Source of the DNA: Candidatus Thorarchaeota archaeon
GTDB taxonomy: Archaea; Asgardarchaeota; Thorarchaeia; Thorarchaeales; Thorarchaeaceae
NCBI GenBank assembly: GCA_016839275.1
Contig: JAEOUM010000117.1
Location: 63,861 to 127,860, forward strand
Length of the DNA: 64,000 nt
Direction: 5' to 3'
Shown: positions 5,251-49,337 of the stretch, in pieces
Numbering within the stretch: the stretch's first letter is position 1
Layout of the letters: each line of letters begins with the position of its first letter
Program-made: the position numbers and the translations under genes
The notes under the pieces: model-generated
What the model was told of the DNA's origin: nothing
Databases searched by the model: none
Seen by the model: the letters and a program-made list of their open reading frames with translations, nothing else

Positions 5251-5392
5251 CTCATGCGAGCGTTGGCGTGTTGCTCAAGTAAGTCTTTATTATACTTGTT
5301 GTTTGGGAAGTTCTGAGGATACATTCACATAACCCAATGGTCAAAAGGGTTCATAGCCAGTCTAAATTATTGTGATGTGAGTGCTGAGCTGA

Positions 5393-7420
5393 ATGGGCGA
5401 TGAAAGTGTATTCATTATAGGCTTTGATATACTACCTTCACACAGTCCTGGGGCTAGATCTGCTCCAAAATTCGCATGTGTAATAATGAGAGATGGAGTA
5501 ATTCTGAATGAATACCCAGAAATTTCTCGTGGTGCTCTATTAAAGATAGTCAAAACAATAGCACCAAAGTGGTTCTGTACCGATAATATCTTCGAGATAG
5601 TCCCTGATAGTAAGTCGTTATTTCAACTGGCAAGTCGTATTCCCAACGAAACAAGAATTGTTCAGGTGACAGGGGTTCCACCACATCAAATTCAGCTCAA
5701 GACTTTAGCTCGTCGTCATGGCATAAACATACGAGGAAAGCCAAGCGCTCTAGAGTCAGCAGCAATCGCCGCTCAACTGGCATCGAAAGGCATTGGTCAT
5801 TCATTAGAGTGTTTCAGTGAACAGACCGAGATCAAAGTGACTCGAGCTCGGAAACCTGGTAGTGGAGGACAGAGCGCCAATAGATACAGACGTAGAATTC
5901 ATTCCGAGATTCAACAGATGACACGATTTATTGAATCTCAGCTCAAAGCTGCTGAAATCGAGTATGATATAGATGTCCGTAATTCTGATTTTGGATACGC
6001 AAGTGCACGTCTTATCACAAATGCACCTCTCCCAGTAATTCGAAACAAAATAGATGCCAAGAGGGGCGGTGACTTCAATATTCTGATTTCGCCTGTTCGT
6101 AAGCGTGTCGAGTTCATGCCTCTTGAACCTATGACAAATCTTTCCGAAATTAAGCCAAAATACTACATACTTGGAGTTGATCCTGGAATAACTGCTGCAT
6201 ACTGTCTTTTGTCTTTAGACGGTAAGGTAAAGGTTCTGAAAAGTAGGAAAGGGCTAACTAGAGCGGATATGATACGCGAGGTCTATGAGACCGGTATTCC
6301 AGTTATGCTGGCTTCTGATGTTCCACAAGCACCTCACTTCGTTGAGAAGATAGCAAGTACAGTCAATGCAATAGTGTATACTCCTGCAAAAGCTATTCCC
6401 GTAGCTGAAAAGCAAGAGCTTGCACGGTCATATGCCAATCACATCAGAGTTCGTAATGCTCACGAGCGAGATGCGTTAACCGCAGCTATCTATGCATTTA
6501 GATCAGTCCTGCCAAAATTGCAGCAGATTGATCGTATGATAAAGGAAGAGCAACTCACGGTTGATCGAAACCATCTGAAGGCTCTCGTGATTAAAGGCAC
6601 CCCTATTAATGAGGCTCTGGCGAGTTTGGAACGTTCAGGTGCAGAGATTGTGGAAACCATCCCAGTAGAACAACCGGTTCAACCATCTGAGGAGAAACTG
6701 ACACAAGAGCGGTTCGATGCTTTAAAAAATCGCTTTGAGCAGATAGAGGATGAAAATCAGGTCCTAGCAGAAAGAGTAGAGGATCTCATACGATTTGTAG
6801 AATATCTCAAGTTCAGAGAAAGTGAGCTTGAGCATAGTCTTGAGATAGTTACTCAGAACAACTACTGGAGAATAAAACGTGACAGAGAATTGGAGAAATC
6901 AAAATCTTCGCTTAAGAAAGCTGAAGCAGACATTATCAAACTTCGAAAACAAGAAGCAACAATGAAGAGTAGACTAGAGCTTCTCAAAGGTGTCAAGCGT
7001 CTTGAGATGCGCGGTGATATGTTAGCTGTGAAAGTGATACCTCATTTCACCCGAGAGAGTGTAGAGGAGTACAATCATAAGGTTGGTTTGAAAGCTGGTG
7101 ATATTATCCTATTTGAGGACGCCTCAGGTGGAGGCCTACAGACTGCAGGACTATTAATTGAAAAACAGATTCGTGCTGTTGTTGTTGACACTCCGCTCTC
7201 ACATCTTCCAAGAGAAGAGCTTGTACGAGCTCTCATACCGATTATTGATGCAAAAGAAGTGGATTTACGACGAATTGATGAATTTGCCTTCATTAGTCGG
7301 AAAAAGTTTGAGAGTGTCCTTCAATCATTCATCAAGGATGTGCGCGAACAAGCTAGACAGAAGGGTGAGGAACAACTAGTACAACTGATTGAACGATACA
7401 AACGAGAGATAGAACGTTAG
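5393..7420 (+). CDS. Conserved archaeal protein with two RNase H-fold (RuvC/YqgF-like) segments and a long coiled coil (COG2433/DUF460-like)
   Basis: IIGFDIL at the N-terminus and YILGVDPGITAAYCLL (RuvC/YqgF-like) mid-protein; strongly coiled-coil C-terminal third. Confidence 0.5.
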   Translation: MGDESVFIIGFDILPSHSPGARSAPKFACVIMRDGVILNEYPEISRGALLKIVKTIAPKWFCTDNIFEIVPDSKSLFQLASRIPNETRIVQVTGVPPHQIQLKTLARRHGINIRGKPSALESAAIAAQLASKGIGHSLECFSEQTEIKVTRARKPGSGGQSANRYRRRIHSEIQQMTRFIESQLKAAEIEYDIDVRNSDFGYASARLITNAPLPVIRNKIDAKRGGDFNILISPVRKRVEFMPLEPMTNLSEIKPKYYILGVDPGITAAYCLLSLDGKVKVLKSRKGLTRADMIREVYETGIPVMLASDVPQAPHFVEKIASTVNAIVYTPAKAIPVAEKQELARSYANHIRVRNAHERDALTAAIYAFRSVLPKLQQIDRMIKEEQLTVDRNHLKALVIKGTPINEALASLERSGAEIVETIPVEQPVQPSEEKLTQERFDALKNRFEQIEDENQVLAERVEDLIRFVEYLKFRESELEHSLEIVTQNNYWRIKRDRELEKSKSSLKKAEADIIKLRKQEATMKSRLELLKGVKRLEMRGDMLAVKVIPHFTRESVEEYNHKVGLKAGDIILFEDASGGGLQTAGLLIEKQIRAVVVDTPLSHLPREELVRALIPIIDAKEVDLRRIDEFAFISRKKFESVLQSFIKDVREQARQKGEEQLVQLIERYKREIER

Positions 7421-11643: not shown

Positions 11644-13113
11644 TCACTCCAGATTTTCGCCTACGCCTATACCATCGACGAGCTGTTGAAAAGCAGCTTC
11701 GGCTCTTGTCCGTGAATGTTCTGCCATTTCTTCTGTGATGAACCCTCTCTGGACAGCACGTTTCAAAAGATGCTGATCGATTATTCTAGGTTCCTGGTCC
11801 ACTGGAGCTCTAACAACATCAATCTCAAGGTCGACATAACGAATTCTTCCAGGATTACTACCATTACTAGGATATACTTCCACTCCTGTATTGATATTAA
11901 CATAAGTGCCCTTTACTCGACCACTCCTTGAATAATAATTAGTGAAAAGAGTCATCGCACCTGGTTGCACTTGAGTAAGAGCATAATCCCCCTCGTCTCC
12001 AACTACATCAACATCCTCCGCATACTCCTGCACTAACTTTAGCTTGCGGTTAGTATGTCTAAATTGCCGCATAATGACAAAGCCCTTGGGATTATTTTCT
12101 ACCACTCTTCCTCTAGCTAATACAATATTACGTCCGTCTAATTTCACGTGCTCAATATTGATTGTATCATCTACCTTTGGCATATCTTTTGAAACAATTT
12201 TTTCAAGTTTAGAGGTGACGTAACCACGCTCCTCAGGACGCTCTTCAATAATCGTTTCTGCTAGGTCAACAAGGGATGAATACCCTGCGCTTTTGTAGAA
12301 GTGGTGATGGTCAATTGTGGGTTTGATTTTAGCCCTCGTTTTGTCAAGAGCATCCTTGACTTCTGCAGGAAATTCAATATCTGCATTACTGGTTCCCTCA
12401 AAAAGTATACCTGTAGAGTCCATCTCATTGTAGTTCTTATACACCCTTTGAGCAGTATCAAGAAGATCATCAACCTCATCCTGTAATTCTTTGTCAGTAA
12501 GGTTCTCAGCAGCAGTTCTCCAGAGAATTCCCCAGTTGTCAGTATGCTCACGAATCTTTCGACCAAGCATTGTCAGATTATGTCGTGCTTCCTGTTCCTT
12601 AATCTTTGTACTAAGTCGTACAACTGGTTCGGGGAGAAGAACCGCAGCTCGTCCAGGTATGGTTATACTGGAAGACAAAACAGGAGCTTTACGTCCATAA
12701 TCGTGGGCACGAATCTGAATCATTAAGGGTTGACCACGTTGTAGGCCTCTATCAGGCAACAATCCTGAAATTGTTCCTAAATCTACCTTTGTCTGTCCAG
12801 TTTTTTCATCTCGCCCTAATACAATTCCACGGTAAATTGAACTCTTAGCCACTCTAGGCGTCCTAGTTATCACGCCACCCAAGCGTCTACGAAAAACATC
12901 GGTAAGTCGGTTTAATATCGATTCGTATGCGATTGCTACAATGCCTTGTAGGTCGCTTCGATCCCAAATATCGACATCCGGAATTTCGCTACGATATGGG
13001 AGACCAAACCTTCTAGCCACTTCAGGGGTCGGCTGAACCATTTCAAAATGGTTCTGTAACAATATCTGGGTCAACGACTGCGAATAGATTCCTCTTATCT
13101 TTGCCTTTATCAT
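11644..13113 (-). CDS. fau-1: RNA-binding protein FAU-1 (RNase E/G-like)
   Basis: MIKAKIRGIYSQSLTQILLQNHFEMV matches the FAU-1 N-terminus (MxVRIRGIYATALTKL); size 489 aa. Confidence 0.7.
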   Translation of the reverse strand: MIKAKIRGIYSQSLTQILLQNHFEMVQPTPEVARRFGLPYRSEIPDVDIWDRSDLQGIVAIAYESILNRLTDVFRRRLGGVITRTPRVAKSSIYRGIVLGRDEKTGQTKVDLGTISGLLPDRGLQRGQPLMIQIRAHDYGRKAPVLSSSITIPGRAAVLLPEPVVRLSTKIKEQEARHNLTMLGRKIREHTDNWGILWRTAAENLTDKELQDEVDDLLDTAQRVYKNYNEMDSTGILFEGTSNADIEFPAEVKDALDKTRAKIKPTIDHHHFYKSAGYSSLVDLAETIIEERPEERGYVTSKLEKIVSKDMPKVDDTINIEHVKLDGRNIVLARGRVVENNPKGFVIMRQFRHTNRKLKLVQEYAEDVDVVGDEGDYALTQVQPGAMTLFTNYYSRSGRVKGTYVNINTGVEVYPSNGSNPGRIRYVDLEIDVVRAPVDQEPRIIDQHLLKRAVQRGFITEEMAEHSRTRAEAAFQQLVDGIGVGENLE

Positions 13114-15072: not shown

Positions 15073-15160
15073 GCGGAGGTTGCCCAGCCTGGTTAAAGGC
15101 GCAGGGTTTAGGTCCCTGTCTCGTAGGAGTTCGCGAGTTCAAATCTCGCCCTCCGCACCA
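15073..15160 (+). tRNA. tRNA-Leu(TAG), class II, with encoded CCA
   Basis: Manual fold gives acceptor GCGGAGG/CCTCCGC, 3-bp D stem, anticodon stem CAGGG/CCCTG with loop TTTAGGT (anticodon TAG), long variable arm, T arm GCGAG-TTCAAAT-CTCGC, discriminator A. Confidence 0.8.
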
Positions 15161-21338: not shown

Positions 21339-22949
21339 TTGACATCCGTAAAACGTCGAAATGTATTGGCAATTCTTATCAAATCTGGGTTTCAGATTAC
21401 ACCTGATGCTTTAGACTATATACTGAATCTCGACGCTCCTATGGAAATTGTTGAGTCTGTCATTCTGTCTAATATGTCCATTGACAGTTCTACTGTTCTC
21501 ACAAGAGAGTACATTGAATTATTAATCGAAGGAAAGACTGTTGAATCTGCCTCTGTGGAATTCATCTCAGGAACAGAACAAGAGCCTATTCCTCCTCCTA
21601 CAATCGCTGAATCTCCAACCAGTGAATCCGAGCTGAATTATAGAATCGAAAAAAATCCGGACGAGAATTCAGTAGGATCTGAGGGTATTATTGAGGATTT
21701 TCTTGAACTATTTCGAGACCGATATGCACGAATCAAAAAAATCTACATGAGTCGGATAGACACACAAAACGCCGTCACTCCATATATTGCTAAACAACGG
21801 AAAAGTTCGACGAAACCAGGACCTTTACAGAATAATGAAAGTGGCCGCAGAGGAAGACCACCTAGTCAAGTTGTACTTGGAATAATAAGGAACAAGAGTA
21901 TCTCAAGCCAACGAAATATCATTATTGATTTAGAGGGTCATGAAGACTCGATAATCTGTGTGATCCCTTCAGTGCAGCGAGGTCCCAAAAATCAGGATCT
22001 ATCCGAAAAAGCGAACGCACTACTACTCGATGAGATTGTGTGCATATCAGGCTATGTTGACAGTAGCAGACGTATGATTGCTGATGATGTTCTCTTTCCT
22101 GATATTCCGACAGTGCGTCAACTAGGCCGTGCTAAGAAAGAGATCTATGCTGCATTCATTTCAGACCTACACTGTGGCAGTCATGAATTCCTAGAAGATG
22201 AATTTGATCGATTCATAGATTGGATAGGCGGGCATGATGTTGACACCTCTGACAAGAATATGATAGAGAAGACAAAGTACCTCTTCATTGCAGGAGACTT
22301 AGTAGACGGTATCAGCGTATATCCTAGTCAGCGGGAACACCTAAAGATACCAAGTCTCTACGATCAGTATGCTACGGTTGCAGAAAAATTGAAGAAAATT
22401 CCGAAGAAGATTAAGATCTTCTGTATACCGGGCAATCATGATGCGTGTCGCCAAGCTCTTCCCAAACCGCCAATCCAGAGAGTATTTGCAGAACCGCTAT
22501 ACAGTCTTGAGAATGTCACAGTACTTGGTGATCCATGCCAGATACTTGTGGAGGATGTCAGAATATTGATGACCCATGGGGACAGTATGGATGACCTTGT
22601 AACCACACTTCCTCGAGCGTCTTATACTGAACCTGCAATATCTATGATAGAGCTACTGAAAAAGCGTCATCTTGCTCCAATATACGGTGGCAAAACAGAA
22701 CTAGCTCCTCTACATCGCGATTGGATGGTCATTGATACGCCACCTGATGTAGTCCACTTCGGTCATGCGCACCATAATGCGGTTGACAATTACCGGGGAG
22801 TACAAATAATCAACTCGGGTACTTTTCAATCGCAGACTGATTTCATGCGTAAACAAGGTGTTATACCCACTCCTGGAATTGTGACTCTTCTCAATCTCCA
22901 GACCGGAATTCCCGATGTAAAATTCTTCTATGATATGTCAGCGCAATAG
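21339..22949 (+). CDS. polB: DNA polymerase D small subunit DP1 (Mre11-like phosphoesterase)
   Basis: Calcineurin-like motifs FISDLHCGS, FIAGDLVDG, IPGNHDA, HGDS, GHAH; N-terminal LAILIKSGFQITPDAL typical of DP1. Confidence 0.85.
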   Translation: MTSVKRRNVLAILIKSGFQITPDALDYILNLDAPMEIVESVILSNMSIDSSTVLTREYIELLIEGKTVESASVEFISGTEQEPIPPPTIAESPTSESELNYRIEKNPDENSVGSEGIIEDFLELFRDRYARIKKIYMSRIDTQNAVTPYIAKQRKSSTKPGPLQNNESGRRGRPPSQVVLGIIRNKSISSQRNIIIDLEGHEDSIICVIPSVQRGPKNQDLSEKANALLLDEIVCISGYVDSSRRMIADDVLFPDIPTVRQLGRAKKEIYAAFISDLHCGSHEFLEDEFDRFIDWIGGHDVDTSDKNMIEKTKYLFIAGDLVDGISVYPSQREHLKIPSLYDQYATVAEKLKKIPKKIKIFCIPGNHDACRQALPKPPIQRVFAEPLYSLENVTVLGDPCQILVEDVRILMTHGDSMDDLVTTLPRASYTEPAISMIELLKKRHLAPIYGGKTELAPLHRDWMVIDTPPDVVHFGHAHHNAVDNYRGVQIINSGTFQSQTDFMRKQGVIPTPGIVTLLNLQTGIPDVKFFYDMSAQ

Positions 22950-22956
22950 AATCAGA

Positions 22957-24204
22957 CTATCCTAGGATGTCCTTTGCTGCCTTGCTGAGTCTGATGTCAT
23001 CATCAAGAATGGCACCAATCTGTTTCTTACTCACAGCTAGCTTGATTTTCTTTGTACGTCCATAACGCCCCTTCGAAATCACTGTTGTATTGATAAGACC
23101 AAGCATATCCAACTCTGAGATCAAGTCAGAAACGCGTCTCTGTGTCAATATATCTAATGAAAGAGTCTTCGCAATGTCTGAATAGACATTGAAACACTCT
23201 CCTGTGACAATATCATTTTGTCCCTTATCAGCAAGTGCATACACTGCAAACAATACTGCCTTTGATTGCATTGGCAGTGTTTTTACGGCTTCAGTTATTG
23301 TGTCCCTCTCGATTACCTTTTGAGCATCTCTTACATGCTCTTGGCTAACCTTCGCATCTCCTCTCCGCTCTGCTAGTTCTCCTGCGGTTCTTAATAGATC
23401 AAGTGCACGTCGTGCGTCCCCATGTTCTTGTGCAGCTAGTGCACCAACAAGATTAATGACGCCCTCATCTGCAACTGCATCTTTATTGAATGCAATCTCC
23501 ACACGCTGTTGCAGAATGCCTCTCAGCTCAACAGCATTGTATGGGGCAAAGATGACCTCCTCCTCTCCAAGTGTGGATAGCACCCTGGGGTCGAGCATCT
23601 CTTTGAAGGTCAGATCATTACTTATTCCTATTATTGATATTCGGCTTCTATCAAGTTCGCTATTCATTCTAGTTAATCCGTATAGGATATCATTGCCCTG
23701 ACTAACATCTCGTTTCACAAGATAGTCCACTTCATCTAGCACTACAACCATAATGCTCTGGTCTGAATCAAGTTGCCTCTTGAAGATTGATCTTATCTCA
23801 TCAGTTGGCAATCCTGTAAATGGAACATCTGACCCGTCAGGCATTGTTGCATTAATTGCATCACAGAGTTGTCGGAGCACTCTGTAGTTTGTTCCAACAA
23901 TTCTACAATTTATTAGTGCAGTCAAAGGAGGGGTGAGTCTACTCTCCTTAGCCTTTTTTACTAGTAGATCTAGCACATATCGCGCTACAACAGTTTTACC
24001 AGTGCCAGTCTTACCATAACACAGAATGTTGGATGGGGGAGCACCCCGTAATGCAGGTCCCAAGATAGACCCAATCTTGTTCATCTGATCATCCCTATAT
24101 GGAAGGCTCTCTGGCACATACGTGGCTCTTAGAGCAGTTCTATCCTTGAAAATATCTTGACCTTGCAAAAACTTGTCAAATAGTTTATCGAGAGGCTTTT
24201 CCAT
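22957..24204 (-). CDS. cdc6: Orc1/Cdc6 replication initiator; the ORF track extends the N-terminus to 24270
   Basis: Walker A GKTGTGKTVVARYV; Walker B VVLDEVDYL; C-terminal winged helix; N-terminus MEKPLDKLFDKFL... aligns to archaeal Cdc6 starts. Confidence 0.9.
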   Translation of the reverse strand: MEKPLDKLFDKFLQGQDIFKDRTALRATYVPESLPYRDDQMNKIGSILGPALRGAPPSNILCYGKTGTGKTVVARYVLDLLVKKAKESRLTPPLTALINCRIVGTNYRVLRQLCDAINATMPDGSDVPFTGLPTDEIRSIFKRQLDSDQSIMVVVLDEVDYLVKRDVSQGNDILYGLTRMNSELDRSRISIIGISNDLTFKEMLDPRVLSTLGEEEVIFAPYNAVELRGILQQRVEIAFNKDAVADEGVINLVGALAAQEHGDARRALDLLRTAGELAERRGDAKVSQEHVRDAQKVIERDTITEAVKTLPMQSKAVLFAVYALADKGQNDIVTGECFNVYSDIAKTLSLDILTQRRVSDLISELDMLGLINTTVISKGRYGRTKKIKLAVSKKQIGAILDDDIRLSKAAKDILG

Positions 24205-24421
24205 CCCACAATACTCCTGTCTATAACTCGAGGTATGAAACCTACACTTATGGCTCTTAAACACTTCCATAAGAAGTTGAGGTAAGTTCCATTGGACTTC
24301 AATTGGAACCTATGGAGCATATGGAAAAAAGAGTAGGTATTACCAGTTAAGTACCAATAGTACTATTCATCTAGTTATCACTGTCATCTGTGTCTACAGA
24401 CAACTCTTCCGGTGACATAAT
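24205..24421. promoter_or_regulatory. Putative replication origin (oriC) upstream of orc1/cdc6
   Basis: Inverted repeat GTTCCATTGGAC/TTCAATTGGAAC at 24287..24310 resembles ORB/mini-ORB cores (TCCANTGGAA), followed by an AT-rich stretch; next to cdc6 and near the polD small subunit, as in Pyrococcus. Confidence 0.4.
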
Positions 24422-25060
24422 TTGCGTCTAAGGGACCTTGAGATTGCACTTGAATCCATATCACGTACTGGAGAGTATGATGTTTCATTGGAACAATATC
24501 CCACTCCTGCCAAAATCGCCTCTGCAATCCTTTTTGCTGCTCAGATGGAACACGGAGACATAACGAGTAAGACTGTTTGCGATTTGGGATGTGGCGATGG
24601 AATATTTGCACTTGGAGCGGCTCTTCTTGATGCGCATCATGTGATTGGAATTGATGTACAAAGCAAAGCCTTAAAGGCGTCACAAATGAATTCACGATTG
24701 CTCGGGATAGAAGACACAGTAGACTGGGTATTAGGAGACGTCTCCTCTTTTCAGCTACGAAGTCTTGTCGACACTGTGGTTAGCAACCCACCGTTTGGTG
24801 TCAAGAAAAGAGGTGCTGACCTGAGATTCCTACAAAAAGCAATCTCAATTGCCGATGTGACCTATAGCATACACCTTGCAGGTGACAAGAACAGAGTCTT
24901 CCTGAAAAATGAAGTCGAGAAGCTTGGTGCAAGAGTGACACAAATCGAAACTTTCCAATTTCCAATAGGTAAATTGTTCGATTACCATAAAAAAAGTATC
25001 CATATGATTGATGTAGACCTCTATCGAATATGTTCCAAAGAGTGTGAACCGAATGGCTGA
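24422..25060 (+). CDS. Class I SAM-dependent methyltransferase with NPPFG motif (METTL5/HemK-like, putative RNA m6A MTase)
   Basis: DLGCGDGIFALGAAL motif I; VSNPPFG motif IV. Confidence 0.7.
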   Translation: MRLRDLEIALESISRTGEYDVSLEQYPTPAKIASAILFAAQMEHGDITSKTVCDLGCGDGIFALGAALLDAHHVIGIDVQSKALKASQMNSRLLGIEDTVDWVLGDVSSFQLRSLVDTVVSNPPFGVKKRGADLRFLQKAISIADVTYSIHLAGDKNRVFLKNEVEKLGARVTQIETFQFPIGKLFDYHKKSIHMIDVDLYRICSKECEPNG

Positions 25061-25820
25061 CGTTAAGAGTGGTGATATAGTAGTACCGGGAGATCAGCTG
25101 TGTGTGATTGAAGAGCTGAGTCCTAGCTACGGCACCTATGAAAAAGATGGTATTGTATTTGCTGCTGCACCCGGCGCAGTTTCAATGGACCTTAAAGAGC
25201 GCGTTATCAAGGTCCTTCAAGCTGATGGAAAGATGAAGCTGGCACTCCCTGTCAAGGGTGATATTCTAATGGGGGAAGTTGTTAACGCATATGAACAACG
25301 AGCTGAGATTGCAGTTGTACGCAGGAATGGCGAAGACTTTCATAGTGGTCTCATAGGTGAGATTCATATTAGTAATGTTACACGCCGTTTCGTAAAAAGC
25401 ATGCATGATGTGTTAAAAGTGAGTGACATTGTACGTGCTGTTGCACTGAACACGCATGAGATTCCTACTACTGTAAGTGTTATCGGCCCCGATCTTGGAG
25501 TGGTCTTCTCAAGATGTTCAAGATGCGGTCACCCCTTGACTCTTACTACTTACAACAACATGTTTTGTTTGAGATGTGAAAACAGAGAAACCCGAGAAGT
25601 TGCCAGTGATTATGGTCAGAACTATGGACTTGAAGCAAGACCCGACCTAGCACCAAGACGAAGGTCTTATGATAATCGTGATTATGACCGAGGCGATCGT
25701 AGAGGAGGAAGACGCTTTGAAGGGGGACGTCGTGAGAGGGATGGAGATAAACGTTTTAGTGATCGAAAATCAAGTCGACCTGACAGAAGAGGAAGTGACA
25801 CACGGAGGCGTCGTGATTGA
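25053..25820 (+). CDS. csl4: Exosome RNA-binding subunit Csl4 with Arg/Asp-rich C-terminal tail
   Basis: N-terminal domain, S1 domain, and zinc ribbon CSRCGHPL...CLRCEN; the last 60 aa are an RD/RG low-complexity tail (RRRSYDNRDYDRGDRRGGRRFEGGRRERDGD...). Confidence 0.8.
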   Translation: MADVKSGDIVVPGDQLCVIEELSPSYGTYEKDGIVFAAAPGAVSMDLKERVIKVLQADGKMKLALPVKGDILMGEVVNAYEQRAEIAVVRRNGEDFHSGLIGEIHISNVTRRFVKSMHDVLKVSDIVRAVALNTHEIPTTVSVIGPDLGVVFSRCSRCGHPLTLTTYNNMFCLRCENRETREVASDYGQNYGLEARPDLAPRRRSYDNRDYDRGDRRGGRRFEGGRRERDGDKRFSDRKSSRPDRRGSDTRRRRD

Positions 25821-25852
25821 AACCAAGAACAATAGAAAATACAAAATTTGAG

Positions 25853-26107
25853 ATGATTTTTGAGATTGGCGGGGAAGGGCATTCATTTCCGAATCTACTT
25901 CGTAAGACCCTTCTTGAAGAACCTGCTGTAGAGTTTGCTGGCTACAATATTGAACATCCATTACTAGCCAGTCCAGTGGTCACTCTACGAACAAAGCGTC
26001 GTCAGGCAAATGTAGTCCTTCGCGAAGCTCTTGAAAAGATGCTTGCTCGTACTGAAGAATTTCGAAAGAAGTTCAATCAAGCAACATCCGATCATAGCAT
26101 AGATTAA
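25853..26107 (+). CDS. rpoL: DNA-directed RNA polymerase subunit L (Rpo11)
   Basis: MIFEIGGEGHSFPNLLRKTLLEEP...FAGYNIEHPL matches RpoL/Rpb11; conserved csl4-rpoL adjacency. Confidence 0.8.
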   Translation: MIFEIGGEGHSFPNLLRKTLLEEPAVEFAGYNIEHPLLASPVVTLRTKRRQANVVLREALEKMLARTEEFRKKFNQATSDHSID

Positions 26108-26137
26108 AGATCAGAATGCTGCTCTGGTGAATCCCAA

Positions 26138-26551
26138 ATGTGGGCACCTTTTGTCAAACATTCAAGCATCGAGCAGATTATGAATGATAAGGGACTAGCT
26201 AAGGTAGGCGATAATCTCGTAAACTTATGTTATTCTCTTGCCAAGACCTTAGTACTCGGCTACACGACTGGCGAAAAAGTCCGAGATAGTGTTCTTGCTA
26301 GAGCAATACGAGGTACATCTGTATACCAGCATATGAATCGGAGAAGTGACATTGGAAAAGCCGCAGATGCATACGAAGCCATTGTGGCATACTTATGGAT
26401 GACCGATAAAATAACAATCTCCGCCATGGCTGATTCTCTCGCTGGTCTACTTGAGATAGATAGCAAGACCAGCCGAGAAAAGGAAGGAATGCTTGCTGCT
26501 ATCTCCTTCCAGCGATTCCTAGAACAGAATATTGCACATCTTCCGCAGTGA
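26138..26551 (+). CDS. Mini-ribonuclease-III-like protein (RNase III catalytic domain only)
   Basis: LAKVGDNLVNLCYS resembles the RNase III signature (LAYLGDAVYEL); AADAYEAIVAYLW resembles the second catalytic motif (DxxEAxxGA); 137 aa. Confidence 0.45.
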   Translation: MWAPFVKHSSIEQIMNDKGLAKVGDNLVNLCYSLAKTLVLGYTTGEKVRDSVLARAIRGTSVYQHMNRRSDIGKAADAYEAIVAYLWMTDKITISAMADSLAGLLEIDSKTSREKEGMLAAISFQRFLEQNIAHLPQ

Positions 26552-26628
26552 CAGCACTCGTTCTATGGACAAGTCAAAATGCTTAATTGACATCTGAACA
26601 CAACGGCTCAGAAGCGGAGTGCAGTCCC

Positions 26629-26958
26629 ATGGAATTCTGTGACAAATGTGGTGCTATGATGGTACCTTTCACACAAGAAGACGGTAAACGCGTATTGAGA
26701 TGCCGGAGTTGCGAACATACAAAAGAAATACGGGGCGAACTAAGTGTATCTCAGAATATAGAGAAAGGACCGCGTGACAAGATAATTGTTGTTGAGGATG
26801 ACTCTATTCCAATGCCTGTCACGAAAGCAATCTGTCCAAAGTGTAATAACACTGATGCATACTATTGGACTGTGCAGACCCGACGTGGTGATGAAGGGGC
26901 AACAGAGTTCTATAGGTGTACTGCCTGCAAACATACTTGGCGTAACTATGGTGGCTAG
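26629..26958 (+). CDS. tfs: Transcription factor S (TFIIS-type zinc ribbon)
   Basis: N-terminal Zn ribbon CDKCGAMM...CRSCEH and C-terminal CPKCNNTDAYYWTVQTRRGDEGATEFYRCTACKHTW. Confidence 0.85.
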   Translation: MEFCDKCGAMMVPFTQEDGKRVLRCRSCEHTKEIRGELSVSQNIEKGPRDKIIVVEDDSIPMPVTKAICPKCNNTDAYYWTVQTRRGDEGATEFYRCTACKHTWRNYGG

Positions 26959-27063: not shown

Positions 27064-27435
27064 TTGACCGAAGAGAAAAAATTCATTCGAAAAAAGCCAT
27101 CTCGGCTTACAACTATTCGTGAGATTTCATCAGAATCTCGTGGGCCTGTCAGAATACTTGGAATTGTAGTGGATTCCAGCCCAGGTTCTGCTCTTGTACA
27201 GGATCTTTACGATGAAGATTTTAAGAAGGCGGGAAGCATTTGGATTACTATAGAGGGAACTCTTGAACCTAAGAAAAAGTACCTCATCATCGGTGATGTG
27301 ACAGAGAAGACCGACGGTGATACTAAGATTCCTTGGCTGAATGCAACCCTTGCACATGATGTTGATTCGCTCGACATTGCACTGTACAAAGAAGTTCTGG
27401 AACTAGAGGAGAAGGTCACTAAAACAATGAGTTGA
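27064..27435 (+). CDS. Hypothetical OB-fold-like protein upstream of PCNA
   Basis: 123 aa, beta-rich (RILGIVVD...ALVQD...IEGTLEP); placed between tfs and pcna. Confidence 0.3.
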   Translation: MTEEKKFIRKKPSRLTTIREISSESRGPVRILGIVVDSSPGSALVQDLYDEDFKKAGSIWITIEGTLEPKKKYLIIGDVTEKTDGDTKIPWLNATLAHDVDSLDIALYKEVLELEEKVTKTMS

Positions 27436-49144: not shown

Positions 49145-49337
49145 TGTATGTACCCATCCTTTGTGGTAATAGATTCGCTTTGTTTGTGGTTCAGCCTCAA
49201 AGGCCACATCCCGCGCGGACGTATCCGCCAATACAAAGGAATGGTCTGGTCAGGCACTAGTGCCATGACCAGATACACCCGAAATGATTTGCTTAAAGAT
49301 GTAACGTTTTGTCTGTTCAAAGCGAAGACTGAACAAG

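Follow-up and report, generated by a model that had tools for sequence, protein, structure and literature searches.

A ribonuclease III-like gene of the archaeal PF11469 family directly downstream of rpoL in a Thorarchaeota genome

The RNase III-like gene and its reading frame

The stretch of DNA analysed here, referred to as the window, comprises 64,000 nucleotides of contig JAEOUM010000117.1 from Candidatus Thorarchaeota archaeon (assembly GCA_016839275.1). It carries a small gene that encodes a ribonuclease III (RNase III)-like protein of 137 residues at positions 26138..26551 (+ strand, ATG start, stop codon included). The gene is preceded by those for the exosome cap subunit Csl4 (25044..25820, +; NF034126, 3.7e-45, 153.9 bits where the cut-off is 90) and for RNA polymerase subunit L (RpoL; 25817..26107, +; PF13656 at 1.1e-18 together with NCBIfam RpoL models), from which it is separated by a gap of 30 nt, and it is followed by the gene for transcription factor S (TFS; 26587..26958, +; TIGR01384, 92.8 bits where the cut-off is 64.75). 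These matches bear out the csl4-rpoL-x-tfs placement given in a preliminary description of the locus, which had been made from the sequence alone and had proposed a Mini-RNase-III (Mini-III)-like gene. Both motif strings quoted there are present in the translation. LAKVGDNLVNL, which corresponds to the signature motif of RNase III, occupies residues 20-30 (26195..26227, +), and DAYEAIVAY occupies residues 77-85 (26366..26392, +).

Two start codons compete for this reading frame. An identical database protein (P0003) is annotated from Met15 (position 26180) and contains 123 residues. We prefer the 137-residue form starting at 26138, because a Shine-Dalgarno-like GGTGA, a putative ribosome-binding element read from the sequence, is located 7 nt 5´ of its ATG (26126..26130, +) and because the N-terminal residues M1, W2, F5, V6, E12 and I14 are invariant in 24 Thorarchaeota homologues; the start in the NCBI record was probably mis-called. 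Compared with its two closest orthologues, the gene exhibits dN/dS values of 0.076 and 0.052, and it is under strong purifying selection. A total of 376 homologues of the protein were found. The closest ones all belong to Thorarchaeota or Promethearchaeota (Asgard) and bear the source names 'hypothetical protein' or 'ribonuclease III family protein'. A second search with a diverse profile again returned mainly Thorarchaeota and added little.

Family membership and fold

The only domain found by Pfam in the 137-residue protein is PF11469 ('Ribonucleas_3_2 / Ribonuclease III'), which was matched with an E-value of 4.6e-18 and 66.2 bits against a gathering score of 25. The hmmscan envelope covers residues 18-121 (26189..26500, +) and profile positions 1-105 of 119. 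Neither PF00636 nor PF14622 was matched at E <= 1 in Pfam, and no NCBIfam model was matched by the window protein or by three distant family members. [quoted passage not shown] The window protein almost certainly belongs to the archaea-specific PF11469 family. This family is small, as an exhaustive profile search of 1.84 billion representatives yielded 212 clusters at 50% identity (E <= 1e-3). The architecture given in the preliminary description, a single RNase III-type domain without a dsRBD, is retained. Its family assignment ('DUF177/PF14622-like') is replaced by archaeal PF11469 on the basis of the profile search, and its kinship with Mini-III did not survive the comparisons described below.

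The predicted structure leads to the same family. The AlphaFold2 model, which was computed for a single chain from a 24-sequence alignment, consists of seven helices (pLDDT 93.3, pTM 0.89). The only significant match of this model in the PDB was 1ztd_A (Foldseek E 3e-5, TM 0.74/0.81, root-mean-square deviation 2.4 Å over 121 columns). The 1ZTD entry, a Pyrococcus furiosus hypothetical protein (Pfu-631545-001), contains two chains; it was also the sole PDB chain matched by sequence (E 4e-11) and was matched by the PF11469 family profile at 4.4e-34. The two proteins share their length, an all-helical single domain and the GD...N and D..E motifs. They differ in several respects: the structure-based identity is only ~29%; the Thorarchaeota clade has a conserved N-terminal extension of 14 residues (MW..FV); and the operons of Thermococci and Culexarchaeia carry a DUF2067 gene between csl4 and rpoL, which the Thorarchaeota operon lacks.

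Active-site residues and homology to RNase III

Equivalent residues were assigned by profile alignment with the RNase III of Aquifex aeolicus. D25 (codon 26210-26212, +), D77 (26366-26368, +) and E80 (26375-26377, +) correspond to Aquifex D44, D107 and E110, respectively, and A21 and N29 occupy the positions of E40 and N48. In the Aquifex enzyme, E40, D44, D107 and E110 bind two catalytic Mg2+ ions, and E110, which bridges both metals, is essential (PMC3867540). Across 101 diverse representatives that are 19-59% identical to the window protein, G24, D25, N29 and E80 form the only invariant columns. E80 is kept in 136 of 137 sequences. At position 77, 115 of the 137 have D and 21 have N, so that one of the two is found in 136. 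At position 21, A occurs in 112 sequences and S in 18 (Ala or Ser in 130 of the 131 aligned). As aligned, the family retains three of the four canonical carboxylates (D25, D77 and E80), including the two most critical ones.

The missing fourth carboxylate need not argue against catalysis, because active Mini-III likewise has Ala at this position. The Bacillus subtilis protein is a proven enzyme in which Ala replaces E40 and Thr replaces D107. It was inactivated by the depositors of its structures through D23N (6TNN) or E106Q (4OUN), at the two sites to which the invariant D25 and E80 correspond.

Profile comparisons connect the domain to canonical RNase III. In a profile search of the PDB, the PF11469 family profile matched human Drosha at 0.0084, with 'LAkLGDslvNf' aligned on 'LEFLGDAVVEF', and Aquifex RNase III at 0.28, with 'LAkLGDslvNf' on 'LEFLGDALVNF' and 'laDavEAliayaW' on 'IGDVFEALWAAVY'. 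Both motifs were in register in the Drosha and Aquifex alignments. Direct comparison of the family profile with the verified Aquifex nuclease domain by hhalign gave an E-value of 5.2e-5 and a probability of 67% over 70 collinear columns that span both motifs (window residues 19-88 on Aquifex 38-118). Aquifex RNase III weakly matches PF11469 in return (E 0.075). PF00636 was weakly matched by 29 of 101 family members (best 7e-4) and is the only other Pfam family matched by more than two of them. In the Foldseek search, RNase III-fold chains appeared in the non-significant tail, namely 1yyw_C (TMq 0.53, E 6.5), 6tnn_I (TMq 0.42, E 1.7) and 5f3p_A. On these alignments, the PF11469 domain is homologous to RNase III domains, and its fold identity is carried mainly by profiles because the RNase III-fold structural matches occur only in that tail.

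The likeness to class 1 Rnc of Aquifex (1JFZ/2NUG) thus lies in a homologous nuclease domain, in which 'DavEAL' of motif 2 is placed on 'GDVFEAL'. Class 1 Rnc carries a C-terminal dsRBD, which is absent from the window protein, and the window protein has a shorter core, with 55 residues from Asp to Glu versus 66 in Aquifex. RNase III-type domains have also been described in other Asgard proteins, as some Asgard archaea encode a canonical Rnc, with an RNase III domain and a dsRBD, beside Argonaute in ago-helicase clusters (bioRxiv 10.1101/2023.12.14.571608). The window protein differs from it in belonging to PF11469, in lacking a dsRBD and in being encoded in a housekeeping operon with no Argonaute nearby.

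A conserved position downstream of rpoL

The genomic position of the gene was compared in 60 loci of Thorarchaeota, taken from genomes that represent species. In those with flanks that are present and uninterrupted, the genes run Cdc6(-) / methyltransferase-Csl4-RpoL-X-TFS-OB-PCNA-PriS-GINS, with an insertion further downstream in a few loci. The PF11469 gene is adjacent to rpoL in nearly all 60 loci, and the few exceptions are contigs that are cut just upstream of the gene. Sequence patterns derived from Thorarchaeota were too specific in a contig scan and recovered only Thorarchaeota or Promethearchaeota loci; the wider taxonomy was obtained from the search of representatives and from cluster and contig look-ups. 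The gene directly follows rpoL in Jordarchaeia (L061/L062), Culexarchaeia of the Thermoproteati (L063/L064), a Thermococcus-like contig whose protein is 61% identical to 1ZTD (L065), Bathyarchaeota (L066), a metagenome-assembled genome of Methanobacteriota (L067) and MSBL1 (L068). Together with Thorarchaeota, the adjacency holds in 7 of 7 lineages examined, which represent three archaeal kingdoms. Cluster look-ups add PF11469 members in Hodarchaeales, Sifarchaeia, Borrarchaeum, Freyarchaeota and Ranarchaeia. Among complete genomes, a survey listed PF11469 only in Thermococcaceae and Thermofilaceae (bioRxiv 10.1101/705046). The patchy distribution together with the fixed genomic position suggests that old vertical inheritance with many losses fits better than repeated transfer.

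Other genes recur beside the PF11469 gene in some lineages. A PF01949 gene (Endo_dU, formerly DUF99) directly follows it, often with an overlap that suggests translational coupling, in Culexarchaeia (L063/L064 5347-5844), Bathyarchaeota (L066 4411-5022) and MSBL1 (L068 2267-2881). A fusion of PF11469 with a NUDIX domain was found in a protein of 261 residues (P0232; one cluster, two members), and stand-alone NUDIX genes are located next to or near the PF11469 gene in the Methanobacteriota genome (L067 4522-4944, which follows it) and in MSBL1 (L068 3561-3968). These cases raise the possibility that the RNase III-like protein and a NUDIX hydrolase are functionally linked. A search of the window for Endo_dU, NUDIX and DUF2067 partners found none.

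Proposed function and alternatives

The best-supported reading is a dimeric, Mg2+-dependent endonuclease that acts on double-stranded or structured RNA. We consider this reading moderately probable; the dimerisation, metal dependence, cleavage of double-stranded RNA (dsRNA) and cellular substrate that it includes are inferred by analogy with other RNase III domains. Catalytic cleavage of dsRNA or structured RNA is predicted with somewhat better than even confidence. The protein would be a minimal all-helical enzyme of ~120-140 residues, made up solely of a single nuclease domain of the RNase III type. The RNA duplex would lie in a cleft created by the pairing of two subunits, and each subunit would hold Mg2+ through D25, D77 and E80 and cut one strand. 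Because there is no dsRBD, specificity would have to be provided by the catalytic domain or by a partner. K47 and R69, which are basic and conserved, may contact the RNA. The fixed place after rpoL in the old methyltransferase-Csl4-RpoL-...-TFS-PCNA-primase string points to a housekeeping role in RNA processing or RNA decay, which would be vertically inherited and lost in many archaeal lineages.

Several observations weigh against this reading. The E40-equivalent is never acidic in the PF11469 family, and N stands at the D107 position in ~15% of family representatives. The position of the Aquifex F41 'ball' is occupied by K, R, S or Q, none of them hydrophobic, and the dimer interface may for this reason differ from that of RNase III or be absent. 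The Foldseek match to RNase III proper was non-significant (E 1.7-6.5). The gene string mixes transcription, exosome and replication genes and is only a loose functional hint. The Pyrococcus member has been called 'a protein of unknown function' (PMC7758197), and a literature search covering PF11469, 1ZTD, COG1939 and archaeal or Thermococcus RNase III found no biochemical, genetic or other characterisation of the family.

The first two of these observations are what a non-catalytic RNase III-like protein would lead one to expect. Such a protein would bind structured RNA or serve as a structural or assembly subunit in the manner of mitoribosomal mL44, and the lack of a dsRBD or any other domain agrees with this role. 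The weak Foldseek matches also include a chain of a mitoribosome entry, 6zm5_c (TMq 0.46), which we take to be mL44. We regard a non-catalytic role as unlikely. The invariant G24, D25, N29 and E80 form a pattern that is typical of an active site and not of a scaffold, and the two sites at which Mini-III was inactivated are exactly the two carboxylates that are invariant in PF11469. Moreover, Mini-III is active with fewer canonical carboxylates.

An active nuclease that has the RNase III fold but acts on a non-canonical substrate is, in our estimate, improbable. Single-stranded RNA, RNA:DNA hybrids or R-loops, or nucleic-acid ends handled together with neighbouring Endo_dU or NUDIX proteins would be the candidate substrates, and the protein would be tied to transcription or replication instead of dsRNA decay. 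Membership in a string with RpoL, TFS, PCNA and primase is in line with this idea, as are the Endo_dU genes that follow or overlap the PF11469 gene in Culexarchaeia, Bathyarchaeota and MSBL1, the NUDIX fusion and the NUDIX neighbours. An RNase III restricted to single-stranded RNA, Mucor R3B2, is known as indicated in PMC8136814. The links to Endo_dU and NUDIX are not universal, however, because the Thorarchaeota window has neither partner. In addition, the well-studied proteins with a single RNase III domain and a GD...DxxE site all cleave duplex RNA, and an alternative substrate is without direct support.

True orthology with bacterial and plastid Mini-III (MrnC), which matures the ends of 23S rRNA, is highly improbable. 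Both are stand-alone RNase III domains of ~140 residues without a dsRBD (for Mini-III, MrnC/YazC, class 4, 4OUN/6TNN), both have Ala at the E40 position, and JGI calls one Thorarchaeota homologue (P0304) '23S rRNA maturation mini-RNase III'. The comparisons with the B. subtilis protein, whose sequence was verified against 4OUN and 6TNN, led us to reject the orthology. B. subtilis Mini-III matches PF00636 at 1.9e-27, a family that the window protein does not match at E <= 1. Its alignment with the PF11469 family profile by hhalign extends over only 17 columns around motif 2 with a probability of 6%, and the Foldseek comparison of the window model with 6tnn gave an E-value of 1.7 and a TM of 0.42. 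The window protein keeps the D107-equivalent Asp, where Mini-III has Thr. The specificity of Mini-III is defined by the α5b helix and the α5b-α6 loop (PMC5141509). The Asp-to-Glu spacing is 55 residues in the window protein versus 83 in B. subtilis Mini-III, and judged by this spacing the window protein has no room for these two elements. In archaea, the splicing endonuclease acts on pre-rRNA stems at their bulge-helix-bulge motifs and cuts them there (PMC8708148, PMC7758197). The window protein is archaeal and encoded in an rpoL operon, with no known link to L3 or 23S rRNA, unlike Mini-III, whose maturation of 23S pre-rRNA is stimulated by L3. A role in 23S processing is unsupported.

A chance open reading frame with look-alike motifs, to which nothing but its small size points, can practically be dismissed in view of the profile E-values, the 376 homologues, the dN/dS of 0.05-0.08, the conserved synteny and the confident fold.

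An RNase III-type nuclease in archaea would bear on a wider question. Reviews still call RNase III absent from archaea, or accidental in them, and how archaea recognise and process dsRNA at all has been posed as an open question (PMC3867540). The preliminary description had considered an archaeal member within a block of transcription and RNA-processing genes noteworthy. The family, a structure and an NCBI name already exist, as PF11469 is listed in Pfam, 1ZTD has been in the PDB since 2005 and PGAP/NCBI label homologues 'ribonuclease III family protein'. The identification of the window gene is correct at the level of functional class, and the gene is a new member of a listed but uncharacterised archaeal family and not a new discovery. 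For the window alone, the result is modest. The present analysis adds a corrected family assignment, documents the invariance of the active site and describes the rpoL-linked synteny across three archaeal kingdoms, where the PF11469 gene proves to be a constant element of an old information-processing string in Asgard, TACK and euryarchaeal lineages. Should the protein be active, archaea would have in it a direct candidate, easy to test, for their missing dsRNA nuclease. We put forward only tentatively, and with some doubt, that PF11469 represents an ancestral archaeal dsRNA endonuclease which predates the split of Methanobacteriati, Thermoproteati and Promethearchaeati, was kept after rpoL and was repeatedly lost. 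Were this true, PF11469 would be the 'missing' nuclease specific for dsRNA, which according to reviews archaea do not have, and the archaeal lineage, Asgard included, would possess a native RNase III-type domain and not solely a sporadic import from bacteria.

Neighbouring genes and other features of the window

The conserved string begins with a class I methyltransferase gene (MTS/PrmA-like by Pfam; 24422..25060, +), and this slot is occupied likewise in the Thorarchaeota, Jordarchaeia, Culexarchaeia, Bathyarchaeota, Methanobacteriota and MSBL1 loci. The last ~65 codons of the csl4 gene that follows (~25620-25817, +) encode a long tail of low complexity that is rich in Arg, Asp and Gly (…RRRSYDNRDYDRGDRRGGRRFEGGRRERDGDKRF…RRRRD); Csl4 proteins called in other lineages contain only 189-197 residues. 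In the Methanobacteriota genome, the RpoL encoded upstream of the PF11469 gene (L067 3381-3860) comprises 159 residues with an added HHH_5 domain. The true start of the window tfs gene is probably the ATG at 26629, and TIGR01384 aligns from residue 16 of the open reading frame.

Downstream of TFS, the string continues with a small OB-fold protein, PCNA, PriS and a GINS-like protein. The small gene between TFS and PCNA (27064..27435, +) encodes 123 residues that weakly match Ten1_2 (CST complex, E 8e-5) and Rep_fac-A_3 (RPA3). Synteny of this gene holds in nearly all 60 Thorarchaeota loci, and in Jordarchaeia and MSBL1 its slot is taken by an OB-fold (PF01336) gene. The small window gene may encode an RPA3/Ten1-like OB-fold subunit of small size. 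Many Thorarchaeota loci carry two tandem PCNA genes after the OB-fold gene (L002-L011, L016, L019-L021 and L023, at ~5270-6990 of these loci), and one is present in the window and in other Thorarchaeota loci. Just upstream of the operon, a DNA polymerase D small-subunit-like gene (DNA_pol_E_B/Metallophos, +) converges with Orc1/Cdc6 (-) within 21339..24270. Genes for replication, transcription and the exosome are densely clustered at this locus, which may lie close to an origin of replication.

Elsewhere in the window, a gene at 11644..13113 (-) encodes a protein of 489 residues with RNase_E_G (PF10150) and DUF402 domains, which resembles the archaeal RNase E-like endonuclease FAU-1. FAU-1 has been implicated in the processing of pre-5S rRNA in Thermococcales (PMC7758197). 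A tRNA-Leu(TAG) gene is located at 15073..15160 (+). An eL15-Euryarchaeota ribosomal-protein leader was matched in Rfam at 49183..49228 (-) with 48.1 bits against a cut-off of 33.7, despite the Asgard origin of the genome.

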